A DNA stretch of 64,000 nucleotides from an uncultured Bacillota bacterium (GCA_905197115.1 CAJJXN010000001.1:1463-65462), one strand, 5' to 3'; positions 4,254 through 36,183 are shown, counted from the stretch's first letter. A program made the numbers and translations. The notes: generated by a model from the sequence alone, not told the origin.

Positions 4254-4973
4254 ATGATGGAAATTAAAATTATGAATTCTAAAAAAATAGATGAAGAAAT
4301 TGCAAATTTATTTATTAAAACAGTAAATGACAACCCAAAATGTATTTTAGGATTAGCAACAGGGTCAAGTCCTTTAGGTGTCTACCAATTATTAGTGAAA
4401 GCATGTGAAGAAAAAAAAGTTTCTTTTAAAGATGTTACTACTTTTAATTTAGATGAATATGTGGGCTTAGATGGAGATCATGACCAATCATATCGTTATT
4501 TTATGAACCACAATTTATTTAATCACATTGATATCGATAAAGCGCATACACATGTACCTTCAGGATTAAATATTGAAGCTGCTAGTCAATATGATAAAGA
4601 TATTGAAGCTGCTGGAGGAATTGATCTTCAAATCTTAGGTATCGGTTCAAATGGACATATTGCCTTTAATGAACCAGGAACACCATTAGATTCTTTAACT
4701 CATGTAGTTAAATTAGATGATTCTACACGTAAAGATAACGCTCGTTTCTTTACAAGCATTGATGAAGTTCCAACGCATGCAGTTAGCATGGGACTTGCTT
4801 CAATTATGAAAGCTAAAAAAATAGTATTAATTGCAACAGGTGCTAAAAAAGCACAAGCGATTAAAGCCTTAGTAGATGGTGAAGTTACTTCATCTTTACC
4901 TGTAAGTATTTTAAAAAATCATAAAGATGCAACAATTTATGTAGATGAAGAAGCAGCTTCATTATTAGGATAA
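4254..4973 (+). CDS. nagB: glucosamine-6-phosphate deaminase
   Basis: GLATGSSPLGVYQ and NLDEYVGL motifs, 239 aa. GAAAGAGGGA RBS. Confidence 0.9.
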   Translation: MMEIKIMNSKKIDEEIANLFIKTVNDNPKCILGLATGSSPLGVYQLLVKACEEKKVSFKDVTTFNLDEYVGLDGDHDQSYRYFMNHNLFNHIDIDKAHTHVPSGLNIEAASQYDKDIEAAGGIDLQILGIGSNGHIAFNEPGTPLDSLTHVVKLDDSTRKDNARFFTSIDEVPTHAVSMGLASIMKAKKIVLIATGAKKAQAIKALVDGEVTSSLPVSILKNHKDATIYVDEEAASLLG

Positions 4974-15172: not shown

Positions 15173-15728
15173 AAAAAGTTAGAATCTGATTTTCAATCGA
15201 ATAGAAAATACGCATGGAACAAATTTCGTTTTCATTTAAATTCGTATCTATTTGTGTCGCATTTATTATCAAAACTTGAGTATTGTTTTGTGTTAAATCT
15301 AAAGAAAGATGAACAGGAATATTAAAGACTGCATCTAAAACAAATAAATTATTTGTAGATTCAATTTGCGTGTCAAAAAGATGATTTTGCATAAAGTTAA
15401 AGTGTTGGCTTCCATGTGTAATGTCTATTTTTATTGAATGATTCTTATCAAAATTAATAATTGGGTATAATGGATTATTAAAATAATAGTGAAAAGATAA
15501 TTCAAAAGAAAAATTGAAACTAGTTTCATCAATTATAGAATGTTGTTTTTGGATTAAATAAGACATAATTAGATTTGGAATTAAAGAAGGTTCTTCTTTT
15601 TCTAAATACATTTCATTTTGAGTAGAAATAGTGGATGAAGAAGATGAAGTTTTTACTTGCTTAGTTTGACAACTTGTAAGACAAAGAATGGAAATAACTA
15701 AAAATAATAATTTTTTAAATAATTTCAT
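15159..15728 (-). CDS. hypothetical lipoprotein, tandem partner of the 14597-15172 gene
   Basis: Signal peptide with LTSC lipobox and an SSSST linker; overlaps the downstream gene. Confidence 0.5.
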   Translation of the reverse strand: MKLFKKLLFLVISILCLTSCQTKQVKTSSSSSTISTQNEMYLEKEEPSLIPNLIMSYLIQKQHSIIDETSFNFSFELSFHYYFNNPLYPIINFDKNHSIKIDITHGSQHFNFMQNHLFDTQIESTNNLFVLDAVFNIPVHLSLDLTQNNTQVLIINATQIDTNLNENEICSMRIFYSIENQILTFYEKE

Positions 15729-15871
15729 TTATAATCCTCCTTGAAAAATAAAACTCTAAAAATAAGCAAATTAAATTACCATTTTATCTTCATTCCCTTC
15801 AAAAACGCACTTTCTATCTTTATAATATAATAAATTTAAAAAATAATAAAGAAAATAAATTATACATTCCT

Positions 15872-15904
15872 AATAAAAAAGCCTTGTTTTTTTAAACAAG
15901 GCTA
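15872..15904 (-). terminator. rho-independent terminator
   Basis: agccttgtt...aacaaggct stem with flanking A/T runs. Confidence 0.55.
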
Positions 15905-15909
15905 TATAT

Positions 15910-16362
15910 TTATTGAATAAGTTGCTTAATCCAAGCTTTTTCTTTTAAAGATACTTTTCCATCAATGGCACAAATCATTAAACAAACCAAAATAAGATCA
16001 TTTTTTAAATCATCTGATAGTTTGCCTAAAATGTCTATCATTTCATTGACTAATTTTTTTAGTTCTTTATTTTCAGCCTTCATTTTTTTAAGAAGGAGTT
16101 GACAATCTTTATAATTTACTTCTTCTTTAAAGAAAACTTTTAGTAATGGATAGCATAATAAATATTCTTCTTCAGACAATTTTCCATCACAAGTAATTGC
16201 ACTTAAAATAAAAGTGGCAAAAATGGCTGTTCCCGCAAGACCATCTTCCGTAATTAAAGATAATGCAGGAATAATATCTAATGATTTTTTGGTTAAAATG
16301 GCACTATATTGAATGATATCTAAATTTTCAAATTCTTTGCATATTTGATTAAACTCTTTCAT
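15910..16362 (-). CDS. TerB-like (tellurite-resistance TerB family) protein
   Basis: Two repeats of the DGK(L/V)SxxE motif (ITCDGKLSEEE; ICAIDGKVSLKEKAWIKQL). Confidence 0.4.
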   Translation of the reverse strand: MKEFNQICKEFENLDIIQYSAILTKKSLDIIPALSLITEDGLAGTAIFATFILSAITCDGKLSEEEYLLCYPLLKVFFKEEVNYKDCQLLLKKMKAENKELKKLVNEMIDILGKLSDDLKNDLILVCLMICAIDGKVSLKEKAWIKQLIQ

Positions 16363-16375
16363 GTTTCTTTCTCCT

Positions 16376-16960
16376 TTATTTTTCTAAACTTTTTATTCCA
16401 TACAAAACAAGTTCTCCTACTTCTTTTGAAAGTTCTTCAAGTGGTTGTAAACGATTGGAATTAAACCAATATTGGTAAGCTGCCACCATTCCCGAAGTAA
16501 TAAATTGGGCGACTAAATCTAATTTTTTTTCGTCTAATTTTTCATAAGGAAGAGTTTGTAATTCTTGTTTTACACGGATGATTAAAGATTTCATAATTTT
16601 TCTGACAATGTAAGATTTAGCTTCTAATTTAAAAAGATTACTGTATAATTCAAGATTACTATTGATAATATCAGTTAGTATTTCAAAAATTTCTAAAGGA
16701 TTACTAATGTGTTGTTTGAAATTAATTTTTTGAGTGGCCTCATCTAATAGTTTGATGAGATCATTTTCTAATTCTTCACGTATTTCATAGATACCACTAT
16801 AATAATTATAAACTGTTTTGCGATCAACATCGGCTTCATCGGCAATATTTTTAATAGTAATTTCGTTGTAATCTTTTTGAGCTAATAATTTAATAAAAGC
16901 ATTACGAATGGCTTTTTTGGTTTTAATGACTCTACGATCGTTTTTTTTGATTTCTTGCAT
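16376..16960 (-). CDS. TetR/AcrR-family transcriptional regulator
   Basis: N-terminal HTH FIKLLAQKDYNEITIKNIADEADVDRKTVYNYY. Confidence 0.85.
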   Translation of the reverse strand: MQEIKKNDRRVIKTKKAIRNAFIKLLAQKDYNEITIKNIADEADVDRKTVYNYYSGIYEIREELENDLIKLLDEATQKINFKQHISNPLEIFEILTDIINSNLELYSNLFKLEAKSYIVRKIMKSLIIRVKQELQTLPYEKLDEKKLDLVAQFITSGMVAAYQYWFNSNRLQPLEELSKEVGELVLYGIKSLEK

Positions 16961-17007
16961 AAGTACAACTCCTTATTATAATAATTATATCATTTTTTGA
17001 TAAAAAT

Positions 17008-18576
17008 CTATAAAGGTAAATCTTTTTTCTCGAATTTAGCACTTCCAAGAATAAAACAAATAACGCCAATAACAAGTAAAATAGCAAGTTTCCAAATAAA
17101 TGTAGTAGTACCTTCTAAAATGGATACGACATCAAACAAAGAAATAATGGTTACATAGTTAAAAGCATTTAAAGCTTTCATGCGAATAATTGATGGTAAA
17201 ACAGCAGATCCAAAAAGACCTAACATAGTAGCTACTAAAAAGAACATGTTTAAACCGCCACCAATACTCATTGAATATTTACTACGATTAAACCAACAAG
17301 AAGCTAAAAAGCATATGCCACTCATAGCAAACATAACAATAAAAGCGCCTAAATTAATTAATAAAAGTTTTCCTATATTTAATCCTGTGTCAACATCTAC
17401 AATTGCATAACAAATTAAACTTGTAATGGTTGTACAAATAAACATTGCTAATAAAGATCCGACTAAATAAAAAGCTTGAGTAAAGGTTACTTCTTTTCTT
17501 TTTGTAGAAGAAGATAAAACATAAGCCATAGAGCCACTATCTACTTGACCAGCGATTAAAGCATTGGCTGTCATAATCATATAAATAATTGGAAGAAGAA
17601 GGCCAGCCATTTTAAAGAAAATAGAACCAACTAAAACACCATATAAGTCGCTACTTCCAATTTCTTGCAATGCATCAGAAACTTCTTTTGGAAGCGAAGA
17701 AAGCATACTTTTTGAAAATTTTGCGGATAATTCTTGTTTGATTCCTTCGACTGTTTCGTTTTCTTTCATGTTTTCTAAACGATAGTTTAAATTAACTTGA
17801 TAATTGATAAGCGCACTAATTGCAATTTCTTTGACTTTTTGATAGTCAGTAAAGCCAAATTCTTCGTATTGCTCTTTGGTTACACCATAATCTTTTAAAG
17901 CATCTAAAACACGTTGTATGTTTTCATCTAAAACCATATTACTTGCTAAAAAAATCGGTACATTCGTTAATATGTATTGTTGCAAATAATTTTTTCTAGA
18001 CCCTTGGCCAATGGTAGTTAAATCATAACGAGGTGCCTCTTCATTGACATTTTTATAAAATGAATCAAATAAGTAAGTGACTTTTCCTTCGTTGTTTACA
18101 GACATTAAATTGAAAGTATAAAATACAAGTCCTTTAATTTCTAGAGCTTCATTTGAATTTTGATGATATCCTTGTGAAGTAATGAATTGATCCACATATT
18201 GCTGTAAATTTAAAGCGGCTGTTTTATAAGCAAGAGTTGTTGCATATTGCATTGCTTTTTCTTGCCCTTGAGCTTGTAATATTTGTGAAAATTCTTCGGT
18301 TTGAGCGACTTTTTTCATCTCTTCTTCAAATATGGTATCAAAATGTGTGAATGCATCATAAGTGATTTCGTAATAATTAATTGCTCGTGCTTGAGTTTGT
18401 GCCTCTAATTCTCCTTGGATAATATTGTCTTGGATGGCTACTTTAGTTGCTCCTAAATTTCCATTGCCTGCAATTAACATTACACAGCACAACATAAAAC
18501 AAACGGCGAAAGTAATAATTCCCCACATGGTTCCATTTGCTTTACATGACTGTTTAAAAAGTGATTTATTAAACAT
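17008..18576 (-). CDS. ABC transporter permease with large extracytoplasmic domain
   Basis: N-terminal TM, an extracytoplasmic domain of about 280 aa and a C-terminal multi-TM bundle. Operon with two ABC ATPases. Confidence 0.6.
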   Translation of the reverse strand: MFNKSLFKQSCKANGTMWGIITFAVCFMLCCVMLIAGNGNLGATKVAIQDNIIQGELEAQTQARAINYYEITYDAFTHFDTIFEEEMKKVAQTEEFSQILQAQGQEKAMQYATTLAYKTAALNLQQYVDQFITSQGYHQNSNEALEIKGLVFYTFNLMSVNNEGKVTYLFDSFYKNVNEEAPRYDLTTIGQGSRKNYLQQYILTNVPIFLASNMVLDENIQRVLDALKDYGVTKEQYEEFGFTDYQKVKEIAISALINYQVNLNYRLENMKENETVEGIKQELSAKFSKSMLSSLPKEVSDALQEIGSSDLYGVLVGSIFFKMAGLLLPIIYMIMTANALIAGQVDSGSMAYVLSSSTKRKEVTFTQAFYLVGSLLAMFICTTITSLICYAIVDVDTGLNIGKLLLINLGAFIVMFAMSGICFLASCWFNRSKYSMSIGGGLNMFFLVATMLGLFGSAVLPSIIRMKALNAFNYVTIISLFDVVSILEGTTTFIWKLAILLVIGVICFILGSAKFEKKDLPL

Positions 18577-19486
18577 GTTTACTTTCCTCCTTTTTTAGAT
18601 TACTTAAAACATTTTTGAAATGCTTTTCTAAATTAAATGTGTTTTCAGTGATAAATTTAACATCTAAATTTTTTAAAGATTTAAAAAGTTGATTTAATTC
18701 TTTATTTTTAATTTTAATTGTTACTTGATTAAATTGTGGTTGATCACGTGTGATTAAATAATTTAAACTTTTAAATTTTTGATAATCTAGATTGTTTTTA
18801 AATTCAATTTTATATTCTTTTTCTTGTGGATTTTTGATTTCGTGAATACTTGCTACATCAACGATGTGACCATTGCAAATTAATGCAACTTTATCACATG
18901 TGCTTTCTAATTCTTCAAACATATGACTGCTCATAAAAATTGTTTTCCCTTTTTTATGTTCTTCCTTGATGATATCTAAAAAAGCATCTCGCATTAAAGG
19001 ATCAAGTCCAGTTGTTGGTTCATCTAAGATAATAATTTCGGGATTTGCCATTAATGCTGCTACAATAGCTGTTTTTTGCTTCATCCCTTTACTCATTCTT
19101 TTTAATGACGCTCTAGGATCTAATTGAAGCTTTTGGATTAAATAATTCGCATAAGTCATATCTTTTAAATGCATAAAGTTAGCTTGACTTTTTAAAAACT
19201 CTATTCCTGTTTTCAAATCCGGAAAAGCGATTTCTCCTGGAACATATCCGATATGTTTTGCGATTTCACTCGCATTTTGCCATGATTCAAGACCATTAAC
19301 ATAAGCATGTCCTTCACTTGGTTTTAAAAAGCCCATAATGTGTCGTATGGTGGTTGTTTTGCCACTTCCATTTGTTCCGGCAAATCCGATCATCTCTCCT
19401 TTTTGAATCGTTAGATTTAAATTAAATATGCCTTTGTTTTCACCATAATCTTTAGTTAAATTGGTTAATTCAATAATTGGACTCAT
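18569..19486 (-). CDS. ABC transporter ATP-binding protein
   Basis: Walker A GTNGSGKTT, signature MSKGMKQK, Walker B ILDEP. Confidence 0.85.
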   Translation of the reverse strand: MSPIIELTNLTKDYGENKGIFNLNLTIQKGEMIGFAGTNGSGKTTTIRHIMGFLKPSEGHAYVNGLESWQNASEIAKHIGYVPGEIAFPDLKTGIEFLKSQANFMHLKDMTYANYLIQKLQLDPRASLKRMSKGMKQKTAIVAALMANPEIIILDEPTTGLDPLMRDAFLDIIKEEHKKGKTIFMSSHMFEELESTCDKVALICNGHIVDVASIHEIKNPQEKEYKIEFKNNLDYQKFKSLNYLITRDQPQFNQVTIKIKNKELNQLFKSLKNLDVKFITENTFNLEKHFKNVLSNLKKEESKHV

Positions 19487-20415
19487 TTTGCAAAAGCACC
19501 TCCGAAATCTTTTTCTTCTTTGTAATAGCTCATAAAATAATCTTCTAAGGTTTCTTTTAAATGGCTAAAACTTTTAATAGAATAGTTAGAGAACAACTGA
19601 ATAACTTCATTGATATGTGTATCATGAGTAGAAATTATTACTTTATTGTGAGTTTCGTCTTGCTTTAATAATTCAAAGAAATTTGATTGACTTTGTTCTT
19701 TGATAAATTGGTGATATACATCAAAGGTTGAAAAAACAATTTCATAATTTTTGATAGCTGAATGCTTTAAATCGTTTGCAACGAAATCAGAAACGATTTT
19801 CCCATCTTTAATAATGGCGATTCGATCACAAGTAGCATCTACTTCTGAAAAAATATGACTAGATAATAAAATAGTTTTTCCTCTTTCTTTTTCTTTTTTG
19901 ATAAATTCAATAAATTTTTCTTGCATTACTGGATCTAACCCACTAGTAGGTTCGTCTAAAATTAAAACATCAGGATCACTCATAAAAGCCGTAACAATGG
20001 CGAGTTTTCTTTTGGAACCAAGACTCATTCGTTTCGTCTCCATGGAAGGATCTAGTTGGAATAATTCAAGTAAATATTTTAATTGTTCATCATTTTTACA
20101 TTTTTGTAGATTTTGCATCATATGTATAAATTCCCATCCCGTTAGTCCAGCAGGTAATGCGATTTCACCGGGAATATAACCAACATGATTTAAAATTCGA
20201 TAATATTGATCAAAAGTTTCCTCGTTGAAAATTTTGGTTTGTCCTGATTGTGGCTTAGAAAATCCCATTAAATGACGAATGGTAGTAGATTTTCCTGCCC
20301 CATTAGGTCCTAAAAATCCAAATACTTCTCCTTTGTTAACATGAAAAGAGATATCAAACACACCTCGTCCTGAACCATAATCTTTTGTTAAATGAGAGAC
20401 TTCAATTACCTTCAT
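19483..20415 (-). CDS. ABC transporter ATP-binding protein
   Basis: Walker A GPNGAGKST, LSGG-like LSLGSKRKL, ILDEPTSGLD. Start set at MKVIEVSHL (ATG 20415) with an AAGGGGG RBS. Confidence 0.85.
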   Translation of the reverse strand: MKVIEVSHLTKDYGSGRGVFDISFHVNKGEVFGFLGPNGAGKSTTIRHLMGFSKPQSGQTKIFNEETFDQYYRILNHVGYIPGEIALPAGLTGWEFIHMMQNLQKCKNDEQLKYLLELFQLDPSMETKRMSLGSKRKLAIVTAFMSDPDVLILDEPTSGLDPVMQEKFIEFIKKEKERGKTILLSSHIFSEVDATCDRIAIIKDGKIVSDFVANDLKHSAIKNYEIVFSTFDVYHQFIKEQSQSNFFELLKQDETHNKVIISTHDTHINEVIQLFSNYSIKSFSHLKETLEDYFMSYYKEEKDFGGAFAK

Positions 20416-20569
20416 GTAAATAACCCCCTTTTTTATAAATAATCTACATTTGAGAATTATATCCTTATAAAGAAATAAAAAAACAACAAAAAAAGAACTA
20501 TTTGAGAATTTGTTCGCATAATAGGTTCTCATAGTATAATTATTCTACAAATAAGACAAAAAGTGAGTA

Positions 20570-20595
20570 TAAAAAAAGGCACTAAAAAGTGCCTA
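20570..20595 (-). terminator. rho-independent terminator of hpf
   Basis: aggcact-aaaaa-gtgcct stem followed by a T-tract on the minus strand. Confidence 0.6.
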
Positions 20596-20600
20596 ATATT

Positions 20601-21140
20601 TTATTCTTCGATTTCAATTACTCCATATCCACCATCGTGTCTTTTATAAACAACAGATACAGATTGATCTTCTTGATCCAAATAAATAAAGAAGTTATGA
20701 CCTAATGCATCCATTGACATAATAGCATCATCTAAAGTCATTGGCGTTGGACGTAAAGTCTTTGTACGAACGAAGATATCTTCTTGTTTTTCATTTTCCG
20801 ATAAAATTTCATTTAAAACAAAAGCTTTTCCTAGATTTGTTTTAGAATTGGTTCTATCTAATTTTGTTTTTACCTTACGAATTTGTGATTCTAATTTTTC
20901 TTTAGCAATGTCTATTGCCTCTAAAACATCTTCTGCTTCTACTTCACTACGTAGAACAAGAAATTTTGTTGGTATGGTAATTTCCACCTTTTCTTTCACA
21001 CCATGGCTTTTGACAACTACTCTACATTCTAATTCTTCACTTTTATAAAGAATTTTTTCTAAACGCGAAAGTTTTGCAATTACACTTTCTTCAACTTGCT
21101 TTGATAAGCGCACACCATTTTTAACAACTGTATATTTCAT
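20601..21140 (-). CDS. hpf: ribosome hibernation-promoting factor, long form
   Basis: S30EA/YfiA N-domain plus a C-terminal dimerisation domain (LDDAIMSMDALGHNFFIY...VYKRHDGGYGVIE). Confidence 0.85.
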   Translation of the reverse strand: MKYTVVKNGVRLSKQVEESVIAKLSRLEKILYKSEELECRVVVKSHGVKEKVEITIPTKFLVLRSEVEAEDVLEAIDIAKEKLESQIRKVKTKLDRTNSKTNLGKAFVLNEILSENEKQEDIFVRTKTLRPTPMTLDDAIMSMDALGHNFFIYLDQEDQSVSVVYKRHDGGYGVIEIEE

Positions 21141-21205
21141 AACAAAATCTCCCTTCTTTCTAATTTTATTATAACATGAAATTAAAAAGAATAGACAATT
21201 TATTT

Positions 21206-22213
21206 TTAATAGTGAATTTCTTCAATGTTTTTGATATCAATCGTTCTTGTTTTATTTTCTATTTCTTTAATCATTGAAACTAATGCTTTATTTAATGGAG
21301 TAGGAACCTTATATTCTGTTCCAAGCTTTGCAATATAGCCATTGAAAAAGTCAATTTCAGTTTTTTGACCTCTTTCTAAAGATTGTAAAGAAGAAGATTT
21401 TAAGTGACGATATTTTTTTCCAACGATCTTAATAATTAGATGGTTGATAAAGTTCCCTATTTTTGAATTGCGATGGTATAACTTATAATAATTTAATTTT
21501 CCTCCATATGGTGGTATTTGAATGCCTTTAGCGATGGCTACAGCGGTTGCTTCTTTAATAATATCTAAAAATAAATTACGAATGGATTTATGTTTCATCA
21601 TTTCACCTAATGTAATGCCTGTAATCGCTCCTAAAGAGGTAATGCATGAATTAATAATTAATTTAGAATATAAAAATTCATAGATATTGTCGACAATTTC
21701 GGTTTCAAAAGTAGTAGATAAACATTGTTTTACAACATTTAAATCTCCCTTGAAAGTTTTTGAAATCGTACCGATTACAAAGTTGCCAGTACTTGTAATT
21801 TCGATATGTCCTCTTTGTGTCATTGTAGAACCATATCCAACTACACAACCTACGCTACGATCTTTTCCCACTATTTCTTCATAAATATCTGTGCAAATAC
21901 CATTTTGTAAAGAGACAACACTACTATTATCTTTTAAAAATGGCAATAGTTTAATTAAACTTTCTTTGACATCATATGCTTTTGTTGCAATCAAAGCTAT
22001 ATCATAAAGCCCTTCTAATTCTTCAATCGTTGCTACAGCTTTCATGGTTTGGGTAAAACTTCCTTTTACCCCGGTTATGGATAATCCTTCATTTTGAATT
22101 AAATCAACATAATCTTGATGTTTTGCAACTACTGTAATATCATAATTTTCTTTTTTTAAACAAGCAGCGATGGAACCTCCAATAGCACCAACACCAATTA
22201 AAACAATTCTCAT
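21206..22213 (-). CDS. ketopantoate reductase family (ApbA/PanE) oxidoreductase
   Basis: MRIVLIGVGAIGG Rossmann N-terminus. 335 aa. Confidence 0.7.
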   Translation of the reverse strand: MRIVLIGVGAIGGSIAACLKKENYDITVVAKHQDYVDLIQNEGLSITGVKGSFTQTMKAVATIEELEGLYDIALIATKAYDVKESLIKLLPFLKDNSSVVSLQNGICTDIYEEIVGKDRSVGCVVGYGSTMTQRGHIEITSTGNFVIGTISKTFKGDLNVVKQCLSTTFETEIVDNIYEFLYSKLIINSCITSLGAITGITLGEMMKHKSIRNLFLDIIKEATAVAIAKGIQIPPYGGKLNYYKLYHRNSKIGNFINHLIIKIVGKKYRHLKSSSLQSLERGQKTEIDFFNGYIAKLGTEYKVPTPLNKALVSMIKEIENKTRTIDIKNIEEIHY

Positions 22214-22225
22214 CTTAATTTCCCC

Positions 22226-23371
22226 CTATGAATGTAAATATTTTTTTAGTATTTCAACTTTGTCTAATTCTTCCCAACGAACAGAAATGTCATGACGTCC
22301 AATATGTCCATAACTTGCAAGTTGTCTAAATTGAGGCTTTCTTAGATCAAGTTCTTGAATAATTTCTTGTGGTTTAAGTGGAAAATTTTCAAATATAGCT
22401 TGTAATATTTTTTCTTCTGGAATCGCATTTGTGTGGAATGTATCAATCATAACGGAAGCAGGTTCAGCTTTACCAATAATATAAGCTAATTGAATTTCGC
22501 ATTTTTTTGCTAATTTGGCGGCGACGATATTTTTAGCAATGTAGCGAGCCATATAAGCCGCGCTACGATCTACTTTAGTGCAATCTTTACCACTAAATGC
22601 ACCACCACCATGGCGCGCACTGCCACCATAGGTGTCAACTATGATTTTTCTACCTGTTAATCCAACATCGCCTTTTGGTCCTCCAATGACAAATTTTCCT
22701 GTTGGATTGATTTCGACTTTGAAGTCTGTGTTCATATTAAAAGATTTTGCAACTTCTATCATTATTTTTTCTTTAATAAATTGTTTGAATTCTCTTTTTT
22801 TATAATCAGGGTCATGTTGAACAGACATTAAAACAGTGAGTAACTTAGGATGATTTGGGTCGGTATAGTCCACTGTCACTTGAGATTTCATATCAGGACG
22901 AGCCCATTTAAATTGACCATTTTTGCGTAAATTAGTAGCAACTCTAACCAATTTATGAGCCATAACAATTGGTAAAGGCATATATCCTTTTGTTTCATCT
23001 GTTGCATAGCCAAACATAATTCCTTGATCCCCAGCGCCTTGAGCATCCACCCCTCTTGCTATATCGGGAGATTGTTGTTTGACATAAACATCAATTTTAC
23101 ATGTTTTTGCATCTAAACCATACTTTTTATCGGTATAGCCTACATCTTCCATAACTTTTCGTGCGATTTGTTTATAGTCAATTTGTGCTTTTGTTGTGAT
23201 TTCACCGCCAATAATTAAGTGATTTGTTGTAACATAGCATTCACAAGCAACACGACTATAAGGGTCTTGTTTTAAACATTCGTCTAAAATAGCATCAGAA
23301 ATTTGATCACATAGTTTGTCTGGATGTCCTTCTGATACAGATTCAGACGTAAATACTTTTTTTAAATTCAT
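22226..23371 (-). CDS. metK: S-adenosylmethionine synthetase
   Basis: GGGAFSGKD and DAQGAGDQGIMFGYA signature blocks. Confidence 0.95.
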   Translation of the reverse strand: MNLKKVFTSESVSEGHPDKLCDQISDAILDECLKQDPYSRVACECYVTTNHLIIGGEITTKAQIDYKQIARKVMEDVGYTDKKYGLDAKTCKIDVYVKQQSPDIARGVDAQGAGDQGIMFGYATDETKGYMPLPIVMAHKLVRVATNLRKNGQFKWARPDMKSQVTVDYTDPNHPKLLTVLMSVQHDPDYKKREFKQFIKEKIMIEVAKSFNMNTDFKVEINPTGKFVIGGPKGDVGLTGRKIIVDTYGGSARHGGGAFSGKDCTKVDRSAAYMARYIAKNIVAAKLAKKCEIQLAYIIGKAEPASVMIDTFHTNAIPEEKILQAIFENFPLKPQEIIQELDLRKPQFRQLASYGHIGRHDISVRWEELDKVEILKKYLHS

Positions 23372-23391
23372 GTTAATTCTCTCTCCTCATT

Positions 23392-23550
23392 CTAAATAAA
23401 AAAGCTCTCCTAAGAGGAAAGCTCAGTTTTAGAAATAAGCTTTCTCTTATCGTTCGAAGTTGCCTTCGCTGAGGATAAAGCACCTACTTTTTCAAGGGTT
23501 GCTACCACGTCATCGATTCCTTCAATCTAGTGGTTCTAAATAAGAGTCTT
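23392..23550 (-). promoter_or_regulatory. SAM-I (S-box) riboswitch with intrinsic terminator, leader of metK
   Basis: Minus-strand RNA reads CTCTTATTTAGAACCAC...GTGGTAGCAACCC...GTAGGTGCTTTATCCTCAGCG...GATAAGAGA. This matches the S-box P1 to P4 consensus blocks (CTCTTATC, GCAACC, GGTGC..ATCC.GCAG, AGATGAGAG), then GAGCTTTCCTCTTAGGAGAGCTTTTTT. Confidence 0.75.
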
Positions 23551-23568
23551 TTTTATTTTGCTTAGTTA

Positions 23569-23775
23569 TTATATATCTTTTTTATTAGAAGAGTCAAGAC
23601 TTGTATGTTTTGATGATTCTTTTTCATTGCGAAAACGCAAAACTTGATCCATTTCAATTTTTGTGATTGCGGTAATGACATCATCTTCAACGCCTAATTC
23701 ATATAAAGTATTGGCGATTTGCATTTGTCTTTTTTGGTATAGTTCTTTTTCGTTAAGTTCTTTCATTTTTATCAC
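23569..23775 (-). CDS. small hypothetical protein (68 aa)
   Basis: ORF only; no recognisable motif. Confidence 0.3.
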   Translation of the reverse strand: MIKMKELNEKELYQKRQMQIANTLYELGVEDDVITAITKIEMDQVLRFRNEKESSKHTSLDSSNKKDI

Positions 23776-23817
23776 CTAATTTTAGTGTCTCCTAAAACAA
23801 AGTGATTAAACAAGAAA

Positions 23818-24069
23818 TTATAAATTTTTTAAAGCTTTACTTAATTGATCGGGGCAAGATGTTTGTTTAAAACCACATTTGATATCCTTTAATCGAGAGA
23901 TTACTTCTTCAATTGGCATTCCTTCTACTAACTTTCCAATTCCTTGAAGATTACCATTGCATCCACCTAAAAATTGAACATTGTAAACTTTTCCGTCTTG
24001 TACATCAAAATCAATCATTTTTGAGCAAGTTCCATTTGTTTGATAGCGATAGTGTTTCATTTTCATCAT
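23818..24069 (-). CDS. TIGR03905-family TSCPD-domain small protein
   Basis: 83 aa, MKHYRYQTNGTCS...QTSCPDQL, matching the TSCPD signature. Confidence 0.6.
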   Translation of the reverse strand: MMKMKHYRYQTNGTCSKMIDFDVQDGKVYNVQFLGGCNGNLQGIGKLVEGMPIEEVISRLKDIKCGFKQTSCPDQLSKALKNL

Positions 24070-24166
24070 CCTTTTTAAATATTATACTTTGTTTCTTTTT
24101 TTAAAAAAAGAGTTTTGTATGTTTTATTTGATTCATATGATGGTATTAGTAAAAGGGGATTATAAT

Positions 24167-24856
24167 ATGAAAAAATTTTTTTTATTTATTCTTTCGTTTT
24201 TTTTATTATGTAGTTGTCAAAAACAAGAGCAACCTGTAGATGGTGCTGTTTATGCAAAAGTATATAGTCATTATAAAACATTAGAACCTTATTTATGTTT
24301 GACATTTGATGATGGACCGGATAAAGTTCAAACACCAAAAGTCTTAGAATTATTAAAAAAATATAATGTAAAAGCTACTTTTTTTGTTTTAGGTGAAGAA
24401 GTAGAGTATCAAAAGAAAATGTTAAAAACAGTTTATGATGCGGGTCATGAAATTGGAAATCATTTCTTTACACATGTTAATATTCATAAATTAACACAAA
24501 AAGAAATCAAAGATGCTATTATAAAAAACAATGAATTAATTGAAGAAGTAATAGGTGTAAAACCGACATTAGTTCGTCCTCCATATGGTATTGTTACGGA
24601 TAATTTAAAAAAAGTTTGTAAAGAATTAGATATGGACATTATATTATGGAATAAAGACTCAAAAGATTGGGATAAAACGCCAGATTCTACAATCATTAAA
24701 CAAATGTTAAACAAACCATCTAATGGTGATATCATGTTGTTTCATGATGGAAGTAAAACATATACTAACACTTTGTCATCTTTAGATGTGATTATCCCGA
24801 CTTTGCAAAAGAAAAACTTTGAATTTGTTAGTGTTTCAAAGCTTCTTTCTCATTAA
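24167..24856 (+). CDS. polysaccharide deacetylase (NodB-homology) lipoprotein
   Basis: LLCSC lipobox, TFDDGPD motif, HFFTH. Start set at the ATG at 24167 with an AAAGGGGA RBS. Confidence 0.8.
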   Translation: MKKFFLFILSFFLLCSCQKQEQPVDGAVYAKVYSHYKTLEPYLCLTFDDGPDKVQTPKVLELLKKYNVKATFFVLGEEVEYQKKMLKTVYDAGHEIGNHFFTHVNIHKLTQKEIKDAIIKNNELIEEVIGVKPTLVRPPYGIVTDNLKKVCKELDMDIILWNKDSKDWDKTPDSTIIKQMLNKPSNGDIMLFHDGSKTYTNTLSSLDVIIPTLQKKNFEFVSVSKLLSH

Positions 24857-25427
24857 TATATTTTTGGTATTGTTCTTTTATTTTCAAAGAAATTGTATAA
24901 TACAAGTCTTTTGTATTCTCGTAGTTATTTGTTTCGTTTGTTTGATAAGGGAAGGTCTCTTCATAAATTTTTCCTTCGTCAAATAAAATAAGGCATTCAT
25001 TTTTAGAAAAATAAACGTCTAACAAGACGAGGTCTTTTTTAGAATTGCTCAACAAAGTATGATAATAAATGGCAACTTCTTTTTGATAATCAATAACAGG
25101 CTGAATGGTTACTTTTTCAATTAAATCTAATTCTAAACAAACGTTATGTTCTTTAAAGTCACAAAAGATATAGTCAATAAATAAAACGGGATTAATTATG
25201 GCTTGATTTATACGTGTGTCTATAATTTTTTTTCGAATGAAGTGTAATTGAATCAAAGGAGTGAAAGAAAAAATCACGGCTAGCATTAAAAAGATTAATG
25301 CTAGGATGTCTAAAATACCCCAGTATTTTTTAAAATGTGCAAAGATAGCTAAAGTAACACTTATAACCATAAAAAGAATTGCAAAACAATAAAAAATGTT
25401 TATTTTAATTTTTTTTTCATTTTTCAT
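24828..25427 (-). CDS. hypothetical membrane protein
   Basis: Two N-terminal TM helices; no known domain. Confidence 0.4.
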   Translation of the reverse strand: MKNEKKIKINIFYCFAILFMVISVTLAIFAHFKKYWGILDILALIFLMLAVIFSFTPLIQLHFIRKKIIDTRINQAIINPVLFIDYIFCDFKEHNVCLELDLIEKVTIQPVIDYQKEVAIYYHTLLSNSKKDLVLLDVYFSKNECLILFDEGKIYEETFPYQTNETNNYENTKDLYYTISLKIKEQYQKYINEKEALKH

Positions 25428-25763
25428 ACTACCATCCCCTATATAACTAATAATTATAGCATATTTTAAAGGATTTTAATCGATTTTTATTTTCAATTAA
25501 TTCTCTTTCTTCCTTTATTATACCATTAAAAATAAAAAAGCAAGTTTTTTCTTGCTTTTTTGTCAAATTAAATTATCAACTTTATATTTTTTAATACTAA
25601 TTTTTGAATAAATTAGTATTTTTGTTTGATTTAAAAAATAAAAAAAGACTTTTTTTAAAATAAATATATTTTTTAAATAGAGAGGCTTTAAAGAAAGGAT
25701 GAAAGTAATGGCATAAATTTAAAAAGTAAAAAAAACAAAAAAAGAGAGAAAGGAACTATAAAT

Positions 25764-27509
25764 ATGAAACAACGCTTTTTAATGAATGTATTATTTTTAC
25801 TGAATGTAGTAGTTAATCAAAATATTGAATTTGGATTAAATAAAAATGAAGTTTGGCAGTTTAAAAGTAATTTAAGTTATCATGAAAAAAAGAGACAGAC
25901 AAATAAATTAATTAAGGGAGAGAAGTTAAATTTAATCGATTTATCTGAAAATACAGGAGATTTTTTATATTCAGATGCAGTGTTATTAAAAGATAGAAGT
26001 TATGTTCTAGCGTTAGCTGTAGACAAAGGATTAGCAATTGAAAATATAGAACTTGAAATTGTCCAAAAGGATCAAACATCTATAACCATTAATGGTAAAC
26101 CTTTAAAAGTCGATGTTGAAGAAGATATTGGTTATCCAACTGGCGGTGGTACTTATATTGGTACAGAATGTGAATGGCTTTGTGTTCCTTTTGAATCTTT
26201 AACTGAAACACTTTTTTTGTATAGTATTGAATTTATAAATCCAACCTTAGATGATATTCAAGCTTTAATGTTATATGAAGGAATTGAGTTAATGCAAGAT
26301 AGTTTTTATTCAGACTATGAAAAAATATCAGGTCCTTTAATATCTGGAAGCGTAGGAACTTATTACGCCAACGTGGATAATCCTGTAACTGTCGAATATT
26401 TGCAATCTTTATTGACTGCCATAGATGAAACGGATGGAGATATAACAGATAAAATTATAATAGTAAAAGATACGTATTCAAGCAATAAGAATAAAATTGG
26501 CGAATATGAGATTGTGTTTAGTGTAAGTGATTCGGCCGGTAATACTTCCACTTTTACATTGATTGTTTATGTACAAGACAAGACAGCTCCCATTATTAAT
26601 GGTCCTGATTATTTAAACTATAGTTATACAAATTTAGTGGATATAGAAGAAATCAAAAACAACTTTAGTGTAACAGATAACGTAGATGAAAATGTAGAAT
26701 TATTAGTTGAAAGTGATCACTATACAGCGAATGCGAATGTACCAGGAACGTATGAAATTGTTTTTTCAGCGATAGATAGTTTGGGGAATAAGTCAGCAAA
26801 AAAAGTTGAGATAAGAGTAATAGATGATGTTGAACCTATAATTAATGGCCCAGACAAAATAGAAAAATCTTTGTCTAGTTATGTATCAATTCAAGAAATC
26901 TTAGCTAATTACACGGCTGAAGATGATATTGATGGAATATTAGAACTGAATATTATTAAAGATACTTATACAGATAACAATAAAAAAGTTGGAGTTTATT
27001 CAATTACCATTTCAGCAACTGATTATTCTAATAATGCAGCAACTAAAACTATCCAAGTAGAAGTGTTTGATGATATCAAACCGATTTGGTATATTCAAGG
27101 AGAAAGCAATTTACTTATTAATGTTGATTATTCTTTGAAACTGGATGAAATAGATATAAAAAGAGTTTTATCTCGTGAGAAAAAAATTAGATTAGAAGAT
27201 TTTGAACTTATTTTAATAGAAGATAAAGATGATTATTTTGTGACTGAAGTTCCTGAAATAAGAAAATATAAATTGACGTTTTTAATTCAAACTCTAAAAA
27301 TGAAAGAAGAACTAAATGTTATATTAAATGTTGTGGAAATGAAAAAAACAGACCAAGACTTACCTACCTCAAAAAGTGAACCATCATGGTTTATAAAAGT
27401 TTTCGATTTCAAACATCAGTCTTATGGAGCAATTGGAGTAGAATGTCTTGCTATTTTATTATTAGGATATTTAATTTATGTGTTGAATAAAAGGCATGAA
27501 AAACAATAA
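25764..27509 (+). CDS. cell-surface protein with tandem Ig-like (DUF5011-type) domains and C-terminal TM anchor
   Basis: Three repeats of the pattern DxxxPIINGPD...Y...I...V.A.D..GN (about 90 aa each). C-terminal hydrophobic anchor followed by KRHEKQ. Confidence 0.55.
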   Translation: MKQRFLMNVLFLLNVVVNQNIEFGLNKNEVWQFKSNLSYHEKKRQTNKLIKGEKLNLIDLSENTGDFLYSDAVLLKDRSYVLALAVDKGLAIENIELEIVQKDQTSITINGKPLKVDVEEDIGYPTGGGTYIGTECEWLCVPFESLTETLFLYSIEFINPTLDDIQALMLYEGIELMQDSFYSDYEKISGPLISGSVGTYYANVDNPVTVEYLQSLLTAIDETDGDITDKIIIVKDTYSSNKNKIGEYEIVFSVSDSAGNTSTFTLIVYVQDKTAPIINGPDYLNYSYTNLVDIEEIKNNFSVTDNVDENVELLVESDHYTANANVPGTYEIVFSAIDSLGNKSAKKVEIRVIDDVEPIINGPDKIEKSLSSYVSIQEILANYTAEDDIDGILELNIIKDTYTDNNKKVGVYSITISATDYSNNAATKTIQVEVFDDIKPIWYIQGESNLLINVDYSLKLDEIDIKRVLSREKKIRLEDFELILIEDKDDYFVTEVPEIRKYKLTFLIQTLKMKEELNVILNVVEMKKTDQDLPTSKSEPSWFIKVFDFKHQSYGAIGVECLAILLLGYLIYVLNKRHEKQ

Positions 27510-27943
27510 TAAAGAGGATATTGACTTATCCTCTTTTTAATAGATATTTATAATAAATACTTATAACTATGAAAGATATGAAGTAGATGAATCGATTTCA
27601 TTATGGTTGAAATATTTAAAAGAATATATAGATAAAGTTCTTCCAAGCCCAAAAACTTTATTAAAAGAAAAAAAGAAATCAAATAGCTAATTTAGGTTTA
27701 ACTCATTCATCAAAGAGAGGTCATCATAGCAATATTAAATTAGATAAAAATCCGAATCCATTATCCCAAGAAAAGCATATTTAAGAGATGAATTTCCAGT
27801 TTGATGATGAAATTTACTTAAAACTAATGTATTGAAAAGGTATAAGATTGCAGATTCAGATATACCAAAAGTATTGAAAAATAAAAAAAAGATAAGCATT
27901 AGGTGGTAGTCATTAGCTACCACAGGCTATATCCAATAATATT

Positions 27944-28062
27944 TGAATTAATATTATGAAAAAAATCAAATAAAAAGATTTAATCAAGATGGTTTATGGA
28001 AAAAAGTAATAAAAAAGCAATAAGCGATGATAAAAAATCTTGTTTAAATACTGCCGTAAAGT
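27944..28062. repeat. about 110-bp direct repeat, copy 1 (partner at 28749-28862)
   Basis: aatcaaataaaaagatttaatcaagatggtttatggaaaaaagtaataaaaaagca...atgataaaaaatcttgtttaaatac versus the second copy; about 90% identity by eye. Confidence 0.6.
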
Positions 28063-28338
28063 AGTAATAAGGAAATGCCAAATAAAAGAAGGAAGAGATT
28101 CATTTTGTTGAATTATATTTTAACCAAATTTTAAATAAAACGATTATTTTAAATGATTTAGAAATTGAAATTCTAAAACAAATAGGTTTGTTTGAATAAA
28201 TTGATTAGATGCTAAAGTAATAAAGGGGCGTTTATTTATGAAATGAATAGAATTTTATCTTTATGAAAAAAAAGAAATAGAAAAGACTTATCCAGATTCA
28301 TTTACTAGTTTAATTGAGTATTTAAAGGATGTGGCTTA

Positions 28339-28686
28339 ATGGGAAAGAAACGTTATCAAGAGGGAAAAATTTATATAACCAATGATAGTCTGTTTTCTCA
28401 TGATGGTTATTCAAAGGCTAATAGAAGAGTGGTTGTTCTAAATAATGATAAAACGCAAGCTACAGTTTGTAGAATTAAGTCATTAAAGGATAAAGATGGT
28501 AAAGTTCGAGAAAAATTAATTCCCATAGAAAATTATCCATGTTTAACAAAACCTAGTGGAGTAGAACCATATCTCAAAAAACAAACGGTTAGAGGTAGTA
28601 AATTTAATGTTAATAAAATGAAGCCTACAACAAGTCGCTTGAATAAGTGGGATATGAAGAAAGTTAAAAATGGAATTAAAAAATAA
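28339..28686 (+). CDS. small basic protein with weak PemK/MazF-like core (putative solitary toxin homolog)
   Basis: 115 aa. AAGGATG RBS. GKIYITND...RRVVVLNNDKTQATVCRIKS resembles GD(I/V)Y.VD...RP.LVVSND...V.VVPLTS of MazF/PemK. Confidence 0.3.
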   Translation: MGKKRYQEGKIYITNDSLFSHDGYSKANRRVVVLNNDKTQATVCRIKSLKDKDGKVREKLIPIENYPCLTKPSGVEPYLKKQTVRGSKFNVNKMKPTTSRLNKWDMKKVKNGIKK

Positions 28687-28748
28687 AAAGTGCCCTATAA
28701 CCATCTATAGGGCTCGGTAGATATAAATTAATATCTACTTAAAATCAT

Positions 28749-28862
28749 TATTATTATATGCAAAAAATTAAAAAAAATCAAATAAAAAGCTTTAATCAAG
28801 ATGTTTTATGAAAAAAGTAATAAAAAAGCAGTAAATAATGATAAAACATCTTGTTTAAATAC
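28749..28862. repeat. about 110-bp direct repeat, copy 2
   Basis: See copy 1; the two copies flank the 28339-28686 ORF. Confidence 0.6.
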
Positions 28863-28989
28863 AGATATAGTGAAGAGTCAATGACCATGCATTATATCCA
28901 ATCACAAAGGGAAGATTAGTTAAAAATGATAAGAGAAATGGAAAATTCGATACAAAAAAAATAATAAAATTTACATTAATTTACATTCG

Positions 28990-29021
28990 AAAAAATGAAA
29001 AAGCCCTAAATTTAGGGCTTA
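28990..29021 (-). terminator. rho-independent terminator downstream of tRNA-Thr
   Basis: aagccctaaa/tttagggctt perfect 10-bp stem, followed by a T-tract on the minus strand. Confidence 0.7.
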
Positions 29022-29030
29022 TTTTAAAAA

Positions 29031-29104
29031 TGGTGCCACTACGGTGAATCGAACACCGAACTAATCCTTACCATGGATTTGTTATGCCATTTAACTATAG
29101 TGGC
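29031..29104 (-). tRNA. tRNA-Thr (anticodon GGT)
   Basis: Manual fold: 7-bp acceptor GCCACTA/TAGTGGC, D-stem GTTA/TAAC with GG in the loop, anticodon stem AATCC/GGATT with loop ATGGTAA, T-arm CGGTG-TTCGATT-CACCG, discriminator A, encoded CCA. Confidence 0.9.
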
Positions 29105-29144
29105 GCAAATACTATTTTATAGATATTTGCATCATTTGTCAAAA

Positions 29145-29687
29145 CTATATGAAATTTTCTTTCATAAAATCACTAATTTTGGAAATAATTTCTGGTTCTA
29201 AAATAATTTTGCCATTTTCGTGTTTATTCATGCGATTAATTCTTCGCTTGCAAATAGATCGTATTGCATCTAATTTTAAATAAGAATGAGCATGGTTATG
29301 ATTCTCAATATTTAATTCTTCAATAACGCCTAAATCAAGAGAAAGTTTTGAACCTTGTATAGGTTTACTTGATAAAGGTATTACAATTACATTTCCAAGA
29401 TCAATAGCCCATACTACAGCATAATGTCCTTTTTTGTTTCTATCAGATAACTCCGTACCTACATTTATGCCAAACTCTACCCACACGACATCTCCTTTTT
29501 TTAAATCGTCGGGTTGAGGACAATAACTACTTTTTTGTGATGTTTGTTTTAAATAATTTGCTTTTTTCTCGAACCAGTCGACAAATTCTAAAGCAACTTC
29601 AGAATCAATGGAAGCTAATTTCTTTTCTATATTTTTTGTGATTTTTAAAAATTTCTGTTGCGCTTTAAAATCACTTTGAAATTTCAA
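29145..29687 (-). CDS. PemK/MazF-family toxin-like protein with about 60-aa N-terminal extension, no adjacent antitoxin gene
   Basis: KKGDVVWVEFGINVGTELSDRNKKGHYAVVWAID..NVIVIPLSS...LDAIRSICKRRI parallels EndoA/MazF [29 protein letters not shown]...AIVAAITAQ...EQIRTIDKQRL. Apparent TTG start with an AAGGTGAT SD. Confidence 0.5.
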   Translation of the reverse strand: MKFQSDFKAQQKFLKITKNIEKKLASIDSEVALEFVDWFEKKANYLKQTSQKSSYCPQPDDLKKGDVVWVEFGINVGTELSDRNKKGHYAVVWAIDLGNVIVIPLSSKPIQGSKLSLDLGVIEELNIENHNHAHSYLKLDAIRSICKRRINRMNKHENGKIILEPEIISKISDFMKENFI

Positions 29688-29708
29688 ACAAACATCACCT
29701 TCTTTGCA

Positions 29709-35967: not shown

Positions 35968-36108
35968 ATAAAAAAAGACCGCATCAGGGTGGTCAAAAAG
36001 ATTCTTCTTTTATCCAGACTTTAACTGTCGGCACTAGAATTTAACTAGTTCTGCTTTCGCTCGCGGGCTTTACCGCCGATTAGGAATTACACCTGACCCT
36101 GAAGATAA
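35968..36108 (-). promoter_or_regulatory. FMN riboswitch (RFN element) plus terminator, leader of ribU
   Basis: Minus-strand RNA reads CTTCAGGGTCAGGTGTAATTCCTAATCGGCGGTAAAGCCCGCGAGCG...GTGCCGACAGTTAAAGTCTGGATAAAAGAAGA, matching the RFN conserved blocks. This is followed by GACCACCCTGATGCGGTCTTTTTT. Confidence 0.85.
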
Positions 36109-36183
36109 TATCATTATACACCATTTTTTTAGAAAGTGAATATTTTCTCATTAATTTGAATATATTTTGATGAGGTGTGTAAA

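Follow-up and report, generated by a model that had tools for sequence, protein, structure and literature searches.

The region at positions 27,510 to 29,708 of a 64,000-nucleotide stretch of DNA from an uncultured Bacillota bacterium (GCA_905197115.1, CAJJXN010000001.1:1463-65462; referred to as the window, from whose first letter all positions are counted) combines two unrelated things. One is a gene linked to rimO, which encodes a 180-amino-acid (aa) protein of the PemK/MazF family; the other, on the opposite side of a tRNA-Thr gene, is an insertion that carries a 115-aa gene faced by a gene for a small RNA. An earlier note, made from the sequence alone, had joined the two protein genes into a single islet of solitary toxin homologues. 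The features that it listed are all real, yet they do not form one unit. As a whole, the region is best explained by a 180-aa core gene next to a decayed element that retains a MazF-fold toxin silenced by a cis-antisense RNA, an explanation to which we assign a probability of roughly 0.45. The pairing of such a protein gene with such an RNA is undescribed; it is seen again at about 35 gut-bacterial loci and resembles a toxin under the control of an RNA. In the window, this pair (hereafter cassette 2) consists of the following features.

28339-28686, plus strand: 115-aa gene, intact, the protein gene of cassette 2
28746→28678, minus strand: predicted 69-nucleotide (nt) small RNA, composed of a 5′ tail, a hairpin, and a terminator hairpin with a U-run
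28781→28753, minus strand: sigma-70-type promoter of the small RNA, TTGATT-17-TATAAT

The 115-aa protein and its predicted fold

The 115-aa protein is basic, rich in lysine and arginine, and predicted to be a soluble beta-barrel. A weak MazF-like core had been suspected in it. This core was undetectable by sequence, as no match was found in Pfam or NCBIfam (E-value (E) ≤ 1), PHROGs, PADLOC or the PDB sequences, but it was recovered at the level of the fold. When the AlphaFold2 (AF2) model (predicted local distance difference test (pLDDT) 88.6; predicted template-modelling score (pTM) 0.79) was compared with the PDB in Foldseek, the top 15 matches were all MazF, Kid, YdcE or MoxT structures (probability 0.99-1.00; template-modelling score 0.53-0.66). 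After these, the probability was below 0.25 and nothing else was credible. The model thus indicates a SH3-like barrel of the MazF/Kid/CcdB type. In line with the prediction that both protein genes of the region would show a MazF fold, Foldseek returned MazF structures for the 180-aa protein as well (see below). The RR motif of the 115-aa family (R29, R30) is invariant and lies at the strand equivalent to that of the MazF catalytic Arg, and one of 27 distant relatives gave a sub-threshold PemK_toxin match (E 0.053). Profile searches with the family against PDB sequences returned no MazF. Sequence homology to MazF, to the 180-aa family or to the 96-aa family that is introduced below was rejected, all of these comparisons being non-significant.

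A word-indexed search yielded 31 homologues of the 115-aa protein, and no more than 70 members of the family (E ≤ 1e-3) emerged when 1.84 billion representatives were searched exhaustively with a profile. No relatives were present in IMG/VR, among the PLSDB plasmids or among the GenBank phages. The members share the motifs NRRVV, IPIExYP, SGV and T..RLNKWDMKK. The exhaustive search also turned up P0298, a protein of 3470 aa in which 12 stretches match positions 37-74 of the 115-aa profile (E 1.4e-13); either a repeat structure of this protein or an artefact of its composition could account for the matches.

The 115-aa gene had been taken for a remnant of a toxin-antitoxin module. This view did not survive, since the gene is intact and the ratio of nonsynonymous to synonymous substitution rates (dN/dS) against the related locus L003 (related loci are denoted by L and a number) was 0.13, a value that points to purifying selection. 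The observation that neither protein gene of the region adjoins a gene for a protein antitoxin did hold. Across the 115-aa family no conserved protein partner was found upstream of the gene, and the upstream neighbours vary from locus to locus. A 33-codon open reading frame (ORF) at 28238-28339, which ends in TAATG and is broken by a TGA, was considered as an antitoxin remnant or as a gene in genetic code 4. It was rejected because the long genes are intact under code 11 and because the near-identical strain L001 has TAA at this position.

A predicted convergent small RNA with conserved structure

The two stacked hairpins that had been noted behind the 115-aa gene (GCCCTATA/TATAGGGC at 28692-28713 and GTAGATAT/ATATCTAC at 28717-28738) are best read as the terminator and body of a predicted small RNA, that is, as one minus-strand unit. 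The hairpin of this RNA is GUAGAUAU/AUAUCUAC, and its terminator hairpin is GCCCUAUAG/UUAUAGGGC followed by a U-run. These two hairpins, and a third one that belongs to the second cassette described below, lie within ~3 nt of where they had been placed, and they exceed chance, with fold z-scores of -4.8 for 28678-28746 and -3.7 for 27877-27934. At its 3′ end, the small RNA extends over the final 9 nt of the 115-aa ORF. A T-run follows the GC hairpin on the minus strand only. As the hairpin lacks a T-run on the plus strand, the 115-aa mRNA should read through to the terminator of tRNA-Thr, and with such read-through the small RNA would be fully antisense to the 3′ untranslated region (UTR) of this mRNA.

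The layout of a protein gene with a convergent small RNA gene was found in about 33 of the 36 usable loci, which belong to Erysipelotrichales and Clostridia. In its common form, a near-consensus promoter with 17-nt spacing, usually TTGACT-17-TATAAT, is located on the opposite strand at 90-122 nt from the stop codon, and it is followed by two to four hairpins and a terminator that overlaps the end of the ORF by 2-22 nt. The promoter score was 10 or more out of 12 in 22 of the 30 distinct cassette sequences, compared to 2.6% of the background windows. Among the alternatives raised at the outset, that of an RNA or cis-encoded antitoxin fits this anatomy best. Its type III-like form does not, as a tandem repeat array is missing; Tandem Repeats Finder detected short A-rich repeats only.

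Sequences of the small RNA are very variable between clades, and many of the RNAs have in common a hairpin that ends in ...GAC-C. The small RNA of the window is conserved, with compensatory changes in its stems, in L003, L024 and L035, and L003 has two copies of it. A consensus structure with four helices was derived for a clade of 12 Clostridial loci. In this alignment 96.7% of the cells were paired, compared to 38-48% in slid controls, and double (compensatory) changes were observed for 11 of the 23 pairs, against 5.5±1.4 in shuffled alignments (0 of 500 shuffles). The presence of 14 G·U cells shows that the structure belongs to the minus-strand RNA. Within the clade, P1, P3 and P4 covary, but the sequence of the P2 hairpin (GUCGG...CCGAC-C) is the same throughout. 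A covariance model built from these 12 loci recovered two loci outside the training set, and in 361 kb of DNA it matched only directly downstream of these genes. A weak match in the window at 62943-62998 on the minus strand (23.6 bits, E 0.006) is probably a mere terminator-like hairpin.

No Rfam family, including those of countertranscript RNAs (ctRNAs), matched the small RNA, either in the window (E ≤ 10) or at 11 related loci at the gathering score. The protein gene's 5′ UTR or ribosome-binding site was dropped as a pairing target of the small RNA, with a mean z-score of +0.18 over 15 loci. In two lineages, strain variants with a dead MazF-fold gene keep the small RNA and its promoter: codon 81 has become a TGA stop in L033/L034 (3001-3243), whereas L035 (~3001-3250) carries frameshifts. 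L035 and L031 derive from one metagenome, and L031 is identical to the window. On an Oscillospiraceae contig, L008 (~3900-4500), the MazF-fold gene and the small RNA are located between direct repeats of ~70 bp that copy the 3′ end of the upstream gene (CTATGCGCTGATGTTCGGTAAAAAyGAAAAAACACCGGCC...); these flanking repeats suggest that the cassette was inserted there as a unit.

An insertion at the 3′ side of tRNA-Thr

The surroundings of cassette 2 contain the following features.

29031-29104, minus strand: tRNA-Thr(GGT)
29142→29114, minus strand: promoter of tRNA-Thr, TTGACA-17-TAAAAT
29001-29020, minus strand: intrinsic terminator of tRNA-Thr
25764-27509, plus strand: gene for a 581-aa surface protein with Ig-like (immunoglobulin-like) domains, a signal peptide and a C-terminal membrane anchor

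The terminator of tRNA-Thr is T-rich on its plus side as well, and it is therefore the likely end of the 115-aa mRNA.

An integration targeted to the tRNA had been suspected, and a comparison of the rimO-tRNA-Thr junction in relatives revealed the empty site. In L017/L018 (GCA_052837625.1), rimO, a PemK-like gene, tRNA-Thr and a terminator are followed by a 195-aa gene, with nothing in between. In blastn, L017/L018 was collinear with the window from 33643 down to 29017, and the alignment picked up again at 25027. This break in collinearity means that the window holds an insertion of ~3.5 kb, roughly 25430-29000, between the 3′ end of tRNA-Thr and a 199-aa gene. The extra DNA contains the gene for the 581-aa surface protein, non-coding DNA and the 115-aa gene. 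A duplicate of the tRNA 3′ end at the distal border, which would have marked an attachment (att) site, was ruled out, as there was no shared word of 10 nt or more with the tRNA region. No integrase is left in the window. Both absences are compatible with decay of the element. Remnants of other element genes (those for the Walker-A protein, Rep, and the 470-, 264- and 444-aa proteins) were likewise not found in the 64-kb window.

The 581-aa protein matched Bact_surface_Ig-like, InlK_D3 and Big_9 in Pfam, and it is 35% identical (E 5e-67) to a 559-aa InlK_D3 protein of L024/L025, which is encoded on the same element, of the Erysipelotrichales type, as a MazF-fold gene. The 581-aa gene lies within the stretch that is missing from the empty site of L017/L018, and the surface protein was probably carried in as cargo. 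What was inserted is a decayed integrated element and a relative of elements of Clostridia and Erysipelotrichales that encode a rolling-circle Rep; the family is probably filamentous-phage-like. Two segments inside the insertion, 28063-28338 and 28863-29000, have no assigned function.

A second, decayed cassette and the direct repeats

Upstream of the 115-aa gene, the insertion contains what appears to be a second unit of the same kind (cassette 1), together with two direct repeats.

27677-27783, plus strand: pseudogene remnant of a basic 96-109-aa family (FPHFR...KHPALI...NPNP), the dead protein gene of cassette 1
27877-27934, minus strand: small RNA A, with an outer stem (GATAtAGC/GCTTATC), an inner hairpin (GTGGTAG/CTACCAC, 27903-27923) and a U-run
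27934-28062: direct repeat R1, consisting of the -35 element (TTGATT) and ~80 nt of DNA upstream of the gene for small RNA A
28746-28862: direct repeat R2, consisting of the small RNA promoter and ~80 nt upstream of it, including a 19-bp inverted repeat

The frame of the remnant at 27677-27783 is broken by stop codons. In tblastn it was matched by the 96-aa ORF of L009 (67% identity over 21 aa, E 7e-6) and by the 102-aa ORF of L016 (E 0.007). The stretch at 27877-27934 is 85% identical to L003 6528-6594, with no alignment in the flanks. In the window the -10 element of small RNA A is degraded (TCAAAT), while the promoter in L003 reads TTGACA-17-TAAAAT. The third hairpin can thus be assigned, on these alignments, to the putative small RNA of a second cassette with a decayed protein gene.

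The 96-109-aa family has at least 127 members, no Pfam match and the motif FPHFRYYKKSKHPALIVGE...NPNPKD. Intact loci were found in L009 (Pumilibacter intestinalis CLA-AA-M10, 6942-7370), L016 (6819-7330), L053/L055 (6001-6500) and L056 (6001-6490), and all of these have a convergent small RNA with a TTGACT-17-TAnAAT promoter and a Y-shaped body, in which the outer stem together with the U-run forms the terminator. In L053-L056 the family occupies the operon slot that is held elsewhere by the MazF-fold gene. Its alignment with the 115-aa family was collinear and non-significant, and we regard it as suggestive only.

The ~110-bp direct repeats that had been reported to bracket the 115-aa ORF are real. 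They exist as two dispersed copies only, 812 bp apart, with 76% identity between 27934-28015 and 28746-28827 and 87% identity between 27992-28051 and 28803-28862, after a register shift of 1 nt. Their 33-nt core occurs exactly twice in the 64 kb, where no occurrence would be expected. They start at the -35 elements and are duplicated promoter-proximal DNA rather than cassette boundaries. The idea that this DNA is pseudogene debris was correct for the remnant at 27677-27783, but not for the hairpins and repeats, in which the bodies and terminators of small RNAs and their promoter regions are recognised. In R2, the 19-bp inverted repeat (28791-28809/28841-28859) is 95% complementary, with a 31-nt loop and a z-score of -4.1, and a weaker copy is present at 27979-28048. 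It is situated upstream of the small RNA promoter, where it might serve as an operator or as a hairpin that insulates.

Related rolling-circle elements

In related Clostridial elements, a long operon on one strand contains genes for Flg_new/Ig surface proteins, a 430-710-aa protein, and the MazF-fold protein with the convergent small RNA, followed by genes for a 32-77-aa hydrophobic protein and a 710-760-aa Walker-A membrane protein. The genes for the latter (L009 4688-6958, L023 11902-14046, L026 8561-10786 and L056 6486-8753; motif NGTMGTGKTT) adjoin genes for rolling-circle Reps (REP_ORF2-G2P, Rep_1). The Walker-A protein had no match in Pfam or PHROGs, and its sole match among the GenBank phages was the unannotated MT835493, 'Bacteriophage sp.'; it may serve an uncharacterised family of elements as the ATPase for morphogenesis or translocation. 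Reps of the REP_ORF2-G2P, Rep_1 or Rep_OBD type were found in L023, L055, L056 and L026, and integrases are present in related intact elements. This combination suggests filamentous-phage or plectrovirus-like prophages.

The backbone element L023 (MT835493) has neither the MazF-fold gene nor the small RNA, which indicates that the pair is a dispensable cassette. The cassette stands alone in remnants at two tRNA loci, tRNA-Thr in the window and tRNA-Leu in L003. Downstream of the element, L023 carries a Dnd-like DNA phosphorothioation cluster at 15724-25225 (PAPS_reduct, DUF4007, a 1202-aa protein and a class-V aminotransferase), followed by a PLD/SNF2 helicase.

The rimO-linked 180-aa gene

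29145-29687, minus strand: 180-aa long-form PemK/MazF gene, encoding two N-terminal helices and a MazF domain

The 180-aa ORF starts with TTG, preceded by the ribosome-binding site AGAAGGTGA, and rimO ends 21 nt upstream of it on the same strand. The tRNA-Thr, both protein genes, the TTG start and the abutting rimO were all confirmed as they had been described. The protein matched Pfam PF02452 PemK_toxin (31 bits, cut-off 23.1; residues 63-153) and PHROG 1412 (E 4e-17; residues 15-128). Its N-terminal extension, which had seemed unusual, is complete in at least 437 homologues of 173-194 aa, and it is thus a family feature, which makes TTG the correct start. The AF2 model was of moderate quality (pLDDT 77.5, with one good model out of five). 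It showed N-terminal helices at residues 7-25 and 29-51 ahead of the domain, and with this moderate model the top six Foldseek matches were MazF. By inspection of the alignment, the MazF catalytic Arg is apparently replaced in the 180-aa family (KGHYAVVW versus GHRPAVVL). A profile-profile comparison with the 115-aa family was negative (hhalign probability 0.3%).

In three lineages this gene comes immediately after rimO and in the same orientation, irrespective of what is found beyond, with identities of 81% (L017/L018), 59-61% (L019/L020) and 57-58% (L021/L022). No antitoxin gene was found beside it in any of these lineages, its neighbours being rimO and a tRNA or other genes. Because it adjoins rimO in all relatives examined, it is not part of the islet DNA, and the proposal that both ORFs belong to one islet had to be abandoned. 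Judged from this synteny, the 180-aa gene is a lineage-conserved core gene outside the insertion and was not horizontally inserted. Its position and orientation suggest that it is co-transcribed with rimO. A long-form PemK that is linked to rimO in three lineages and has no antitoxin gene raises the question of what its MazF domain does, and whether it serves as a housekeeping partner of an enzyme that modifies a ribosomal protein.

A proposed toxin silenced by antisense RNA, and rival explanations

In the preferred explanation, the remnant keeps two cassettes of one kind, in each of which a small basic protein gene faces a strongly promoted gene for a structured small RNA of 55-90 nt, with the terminator of the RNA abutting or overlapping the stop codon of the protein gene. 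Cassette 1 is dead, with its 96-aa-family pseudogene and the damaged -10 element of small RNA A, whereas cassette 2, with the 115-aa gene and the 69-nt RNA, is intact. The 115-aa mRNA is expected to run through the small RNA gene to the tRNA terminator, since it has no terminator of its own before that site. An abundant countertranscript could then pair with the 3′ end and the 3′ UTR of this mRNA, and the pairing would limit its stability or expression, so that the MazF-fold and presumably RNA-targeting toxin would stay silent. In this arrangement, a type I-like layout would be combined with a toxin fold of the type II/III kind, and an addictive property would explain why the cassette outlived the rest of the element. 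A toxic protein would be consistent with a cassette that survives alone under purifying selection, is dispensable for the backbone and has no conserved protein partner, as well as with the two lineages in which the protein gene has been knocked out with retention of the small RNA and its promoter.

Several known systems resemble this arrangement in part. The txpA/RatA and bsrG/SR4 pairs of B. subtilis are type I systems with convergent antitoxin RNAs that overlap at the 3′ end. Common to the type I systems and the cassette are a short, strongly promoted cis-antisense RNA that is transcribed towards the gene and overlaps its 3′ end, a location in prophage remnants or mobile elements of Firmicutes, and the lack of a protein antitoxin. 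An antisense RNA gene that overlaps the toxin mRNA, as is typical of type I, was predicted in silico in about 33 of 36 loci. The toxins of type I systems, however, are hydrophobic membrane peptides of less than 60 aa, while the 115-aa protein is basic and soluble, with a MazF/Kid fold, and is not a small hydrophobic membrane-active peptide; both its RNA and the action of that RNA are predicted. Type I systems of Clostridia have been reviewed (PMC6563280). A type I-like pair with a soluble protein is also known from E. coli, where the nucleic-acid-binding toxin SymE (~113 aa), which is tied to the MazEF world, is repressed by the cis-antisense RNA SymR (PMC1891008). SymE has an AbrB/MazE fold, in contrast to the MazF fold seen here, and SymR overlaps the 5′ end and ribosome-binding site of its target, whereas the small RNA of the cassette overlaps the 3′ end.

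Several points speak against a toxin silenced by antisense RNA. No sequence-level link from the 115-aa family to MazF was found, even with a broadened profile, and the position of the MazF catalytic Thr varies in the family (KIKSL, KIKGL, RITSL), so that invariance is limited to the RR motif. A promoter for the 115-aa gene was not found in the window, and across 15 loci the small RNA had no complementarity to the 5′ UTR of the protein gene (mean z +0.18). The filamentous-phage assignment draws on the Rep domains of related loci alone, and IMG/VR lacks relatives of the 115-aa protein. In addition, intact elements hold the gene at a fixed slot in a long same-strand operon, which would fit not only a toxin but equally a regulator or a DNA-binding protein of the element.

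The last point leads to a serious rival, which we consider possible rather than probable, namely that the cassette is a non-toxic regulatory module of the element and not a toxin-antitoxin pair. The protein would then be a nucleic-acid binder, such as a Cop-like repressor, an RNA-binding regulator or a single-strand-DNA-binding protein like gene V, and the copy in the window would have been left behind, either because decay has not reached it so far or because the host has co-opted it. The countertranscript would damp read-through into the morphogenesis and Rep genes, as has been seen for other countertranscripts. Phages have such RNAs in the lambda OOP RNA, directed at cII, and in the P22 sar RNA. 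On the rolling-circle plasmid pMV158, CopG and the countertranscript RNAII are encoded in the order copG-RNAII-repB (PMC5717011), and the layout of the cassette matches this order: a small protein gene is followed, inside an element operon, by a short countertranscript with a strong promoter, which consists of a hairpin and an intrinsic terminator. A regulatory role would also suit the slot itself, directly upstream of the 32-77-aa hydrophobic protein and the Walker-A protein and then the rolling-circle replication (RCR) Rep, the occurrence of a second, unrelated small basic family with the same kind of small RNA in this slot, and the lack of conservation of the canonical catalytic Thr. On the other hand, the backbone of L023 does without the cassette, and an essential regulator or single-strand binder would not be dispensable. 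The cassette is also intact, with a dN/dS of 0.13, in remnants that lack Rep, Walker-A and other element genes, and it thus persists alone in chromosomes. Furthermore, the ribosome-binding site of the downstream gene lies outside the small RNA, no ctRNA family of Rfam was matched, and the fold matches MazF toxins only and neither the OB-fold (oligonucleotide/oligosaccharide-binding fold) of gene V proteins nor ribbon-helix-helix (RHH) repressors, to which the repressor of pMV158 belongs.

It is improbable, in our view, that the small RNA binds and neutralises the MazF-fold protein directly, in a type III-like manner and without antisense pairing. ToxN-type toxins have a Kid/MazF-like fold, and the ToxIN, CptIN and TenpIN systems resemble the cassette in that a toxin with such a fold has no candidate antitoxin other than an RNA, and in their association with mobile elements. 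An element recognised by the protein would also suit the 12-locus clade, in which P2 is invariant while P1, P3 and P4 covary, as well as the ...GAC-C hairpin that is common to many of the small RNAs and the two RNA copies in L003. The known systems, however, have a tandem repeat array upstream of the toxin gene. The cassette has neither such an array nor a co-oriented RNA gene upstream, but a single convergent RNA gene with its own promoter and terminator. Moreover, its layout in itself provides full antisense complementarity to the read-through mRNA, and the variability of the RNA between clades does not fit recognition by a protein.

Very little speaks for the reading with which the region was first approached, that of two solitary type II toxins left over from decayed MazEF/PemIK modules at a tRNA site, among meaningless hairpins and repeats. 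It draws on the MazF fold of both proteins, the lack of an adjoining antitoxin gene and the genuine pseudogene debris. The 115-aa protein shares its fold with the toxins of MazEF and PemIK (Kis-Kid), and the 180-aa protein is a member of Pfam PemK_toxin. These modules, however, have a MazE/PemI-type gene next to the toxin gene, the 115-aa family fails every PemK_toxin sequence test and does not conserve the catalytic Thr, and the 180-aa family has apparently replaced the catalytic Arg (GHY). As the 180-aa gene is linked to rimO outside the insertion in all relatives examined, a conserved protein partner is missing from every member of the 115-aa family, and both hairpins and promoter show conservation, with covariation, in two classes of bacteria, the comparative data have largely refuted this reading already. 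Least credible of all is that the promoter-like element and hairpins act at the DNA level, as a minus-strand origin, a packaging signal or the like in a single-stranded-DNA element: the related elements do encode rolling-circle Reps, and the single-strand origins of Ff phages and RCR plasmids are promoter-mimicking hairpins, but here the -35 and -10 hexamers are in a linear, 17-nt arrangement that does not arise by fold-back, a canonical intrinsic terminator (GC hairpin and U-run) ends the unit in every locus, and the unit is missing from the L023 backbone and kept in chromosomal remnants without Rep.

Should the small RNA be the antidote, a MazF-fold toxin under the control of a convergent antisense RNA would fall outside the current definitions of types I, II and III. 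Only tentatively would we go further and regard the 115-aa family, with the 96-aa family in parallel, as an undescribed class of toxin-antitoxin or immunity cassette, in which a MazF-fold protein that does not resemble known MazF in sequence is neutralised by a dedicated, structured and convergent small RNA. Such a class would combine the layout of type I with the chemistry of type III, and it would be an accessory module of uncharacterised rolling-circle, filamentous-phage-like elements of gut Clostridia and Erysipelotrichales that is able to outlive its element in the chromosome. The cassette is missed by Pfam, NCBIfam, PADLOC, PHROGs and Rfam, and no description of it was found in the literature searched. 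What is gained is a testable small RNA family with covariation support, a second, analogous cassette, and a handle on an unannotated family of rolling-circle elements of gut Firmicutes, which are probably filamentous phages of Gram-positive bacteria.

Other features of the region

Genetic code 11 was assigned to the genome of the window because its long genes are intact under this code. The stretches 27510-28338 and 28690-29030, which had been described as free of credible ORFs, contained no plus-strand ORF of 40 aa or more and only two minus-strand ORFs, both implausible, which bears out that description. Apart from the tRNA, the region had no match in Rfam (E ≤ 10). Elsewhere in the window, an FMN riboswitch (RF00050) was detected at 35998-36110 on the minus strand with a score of 101 bits.

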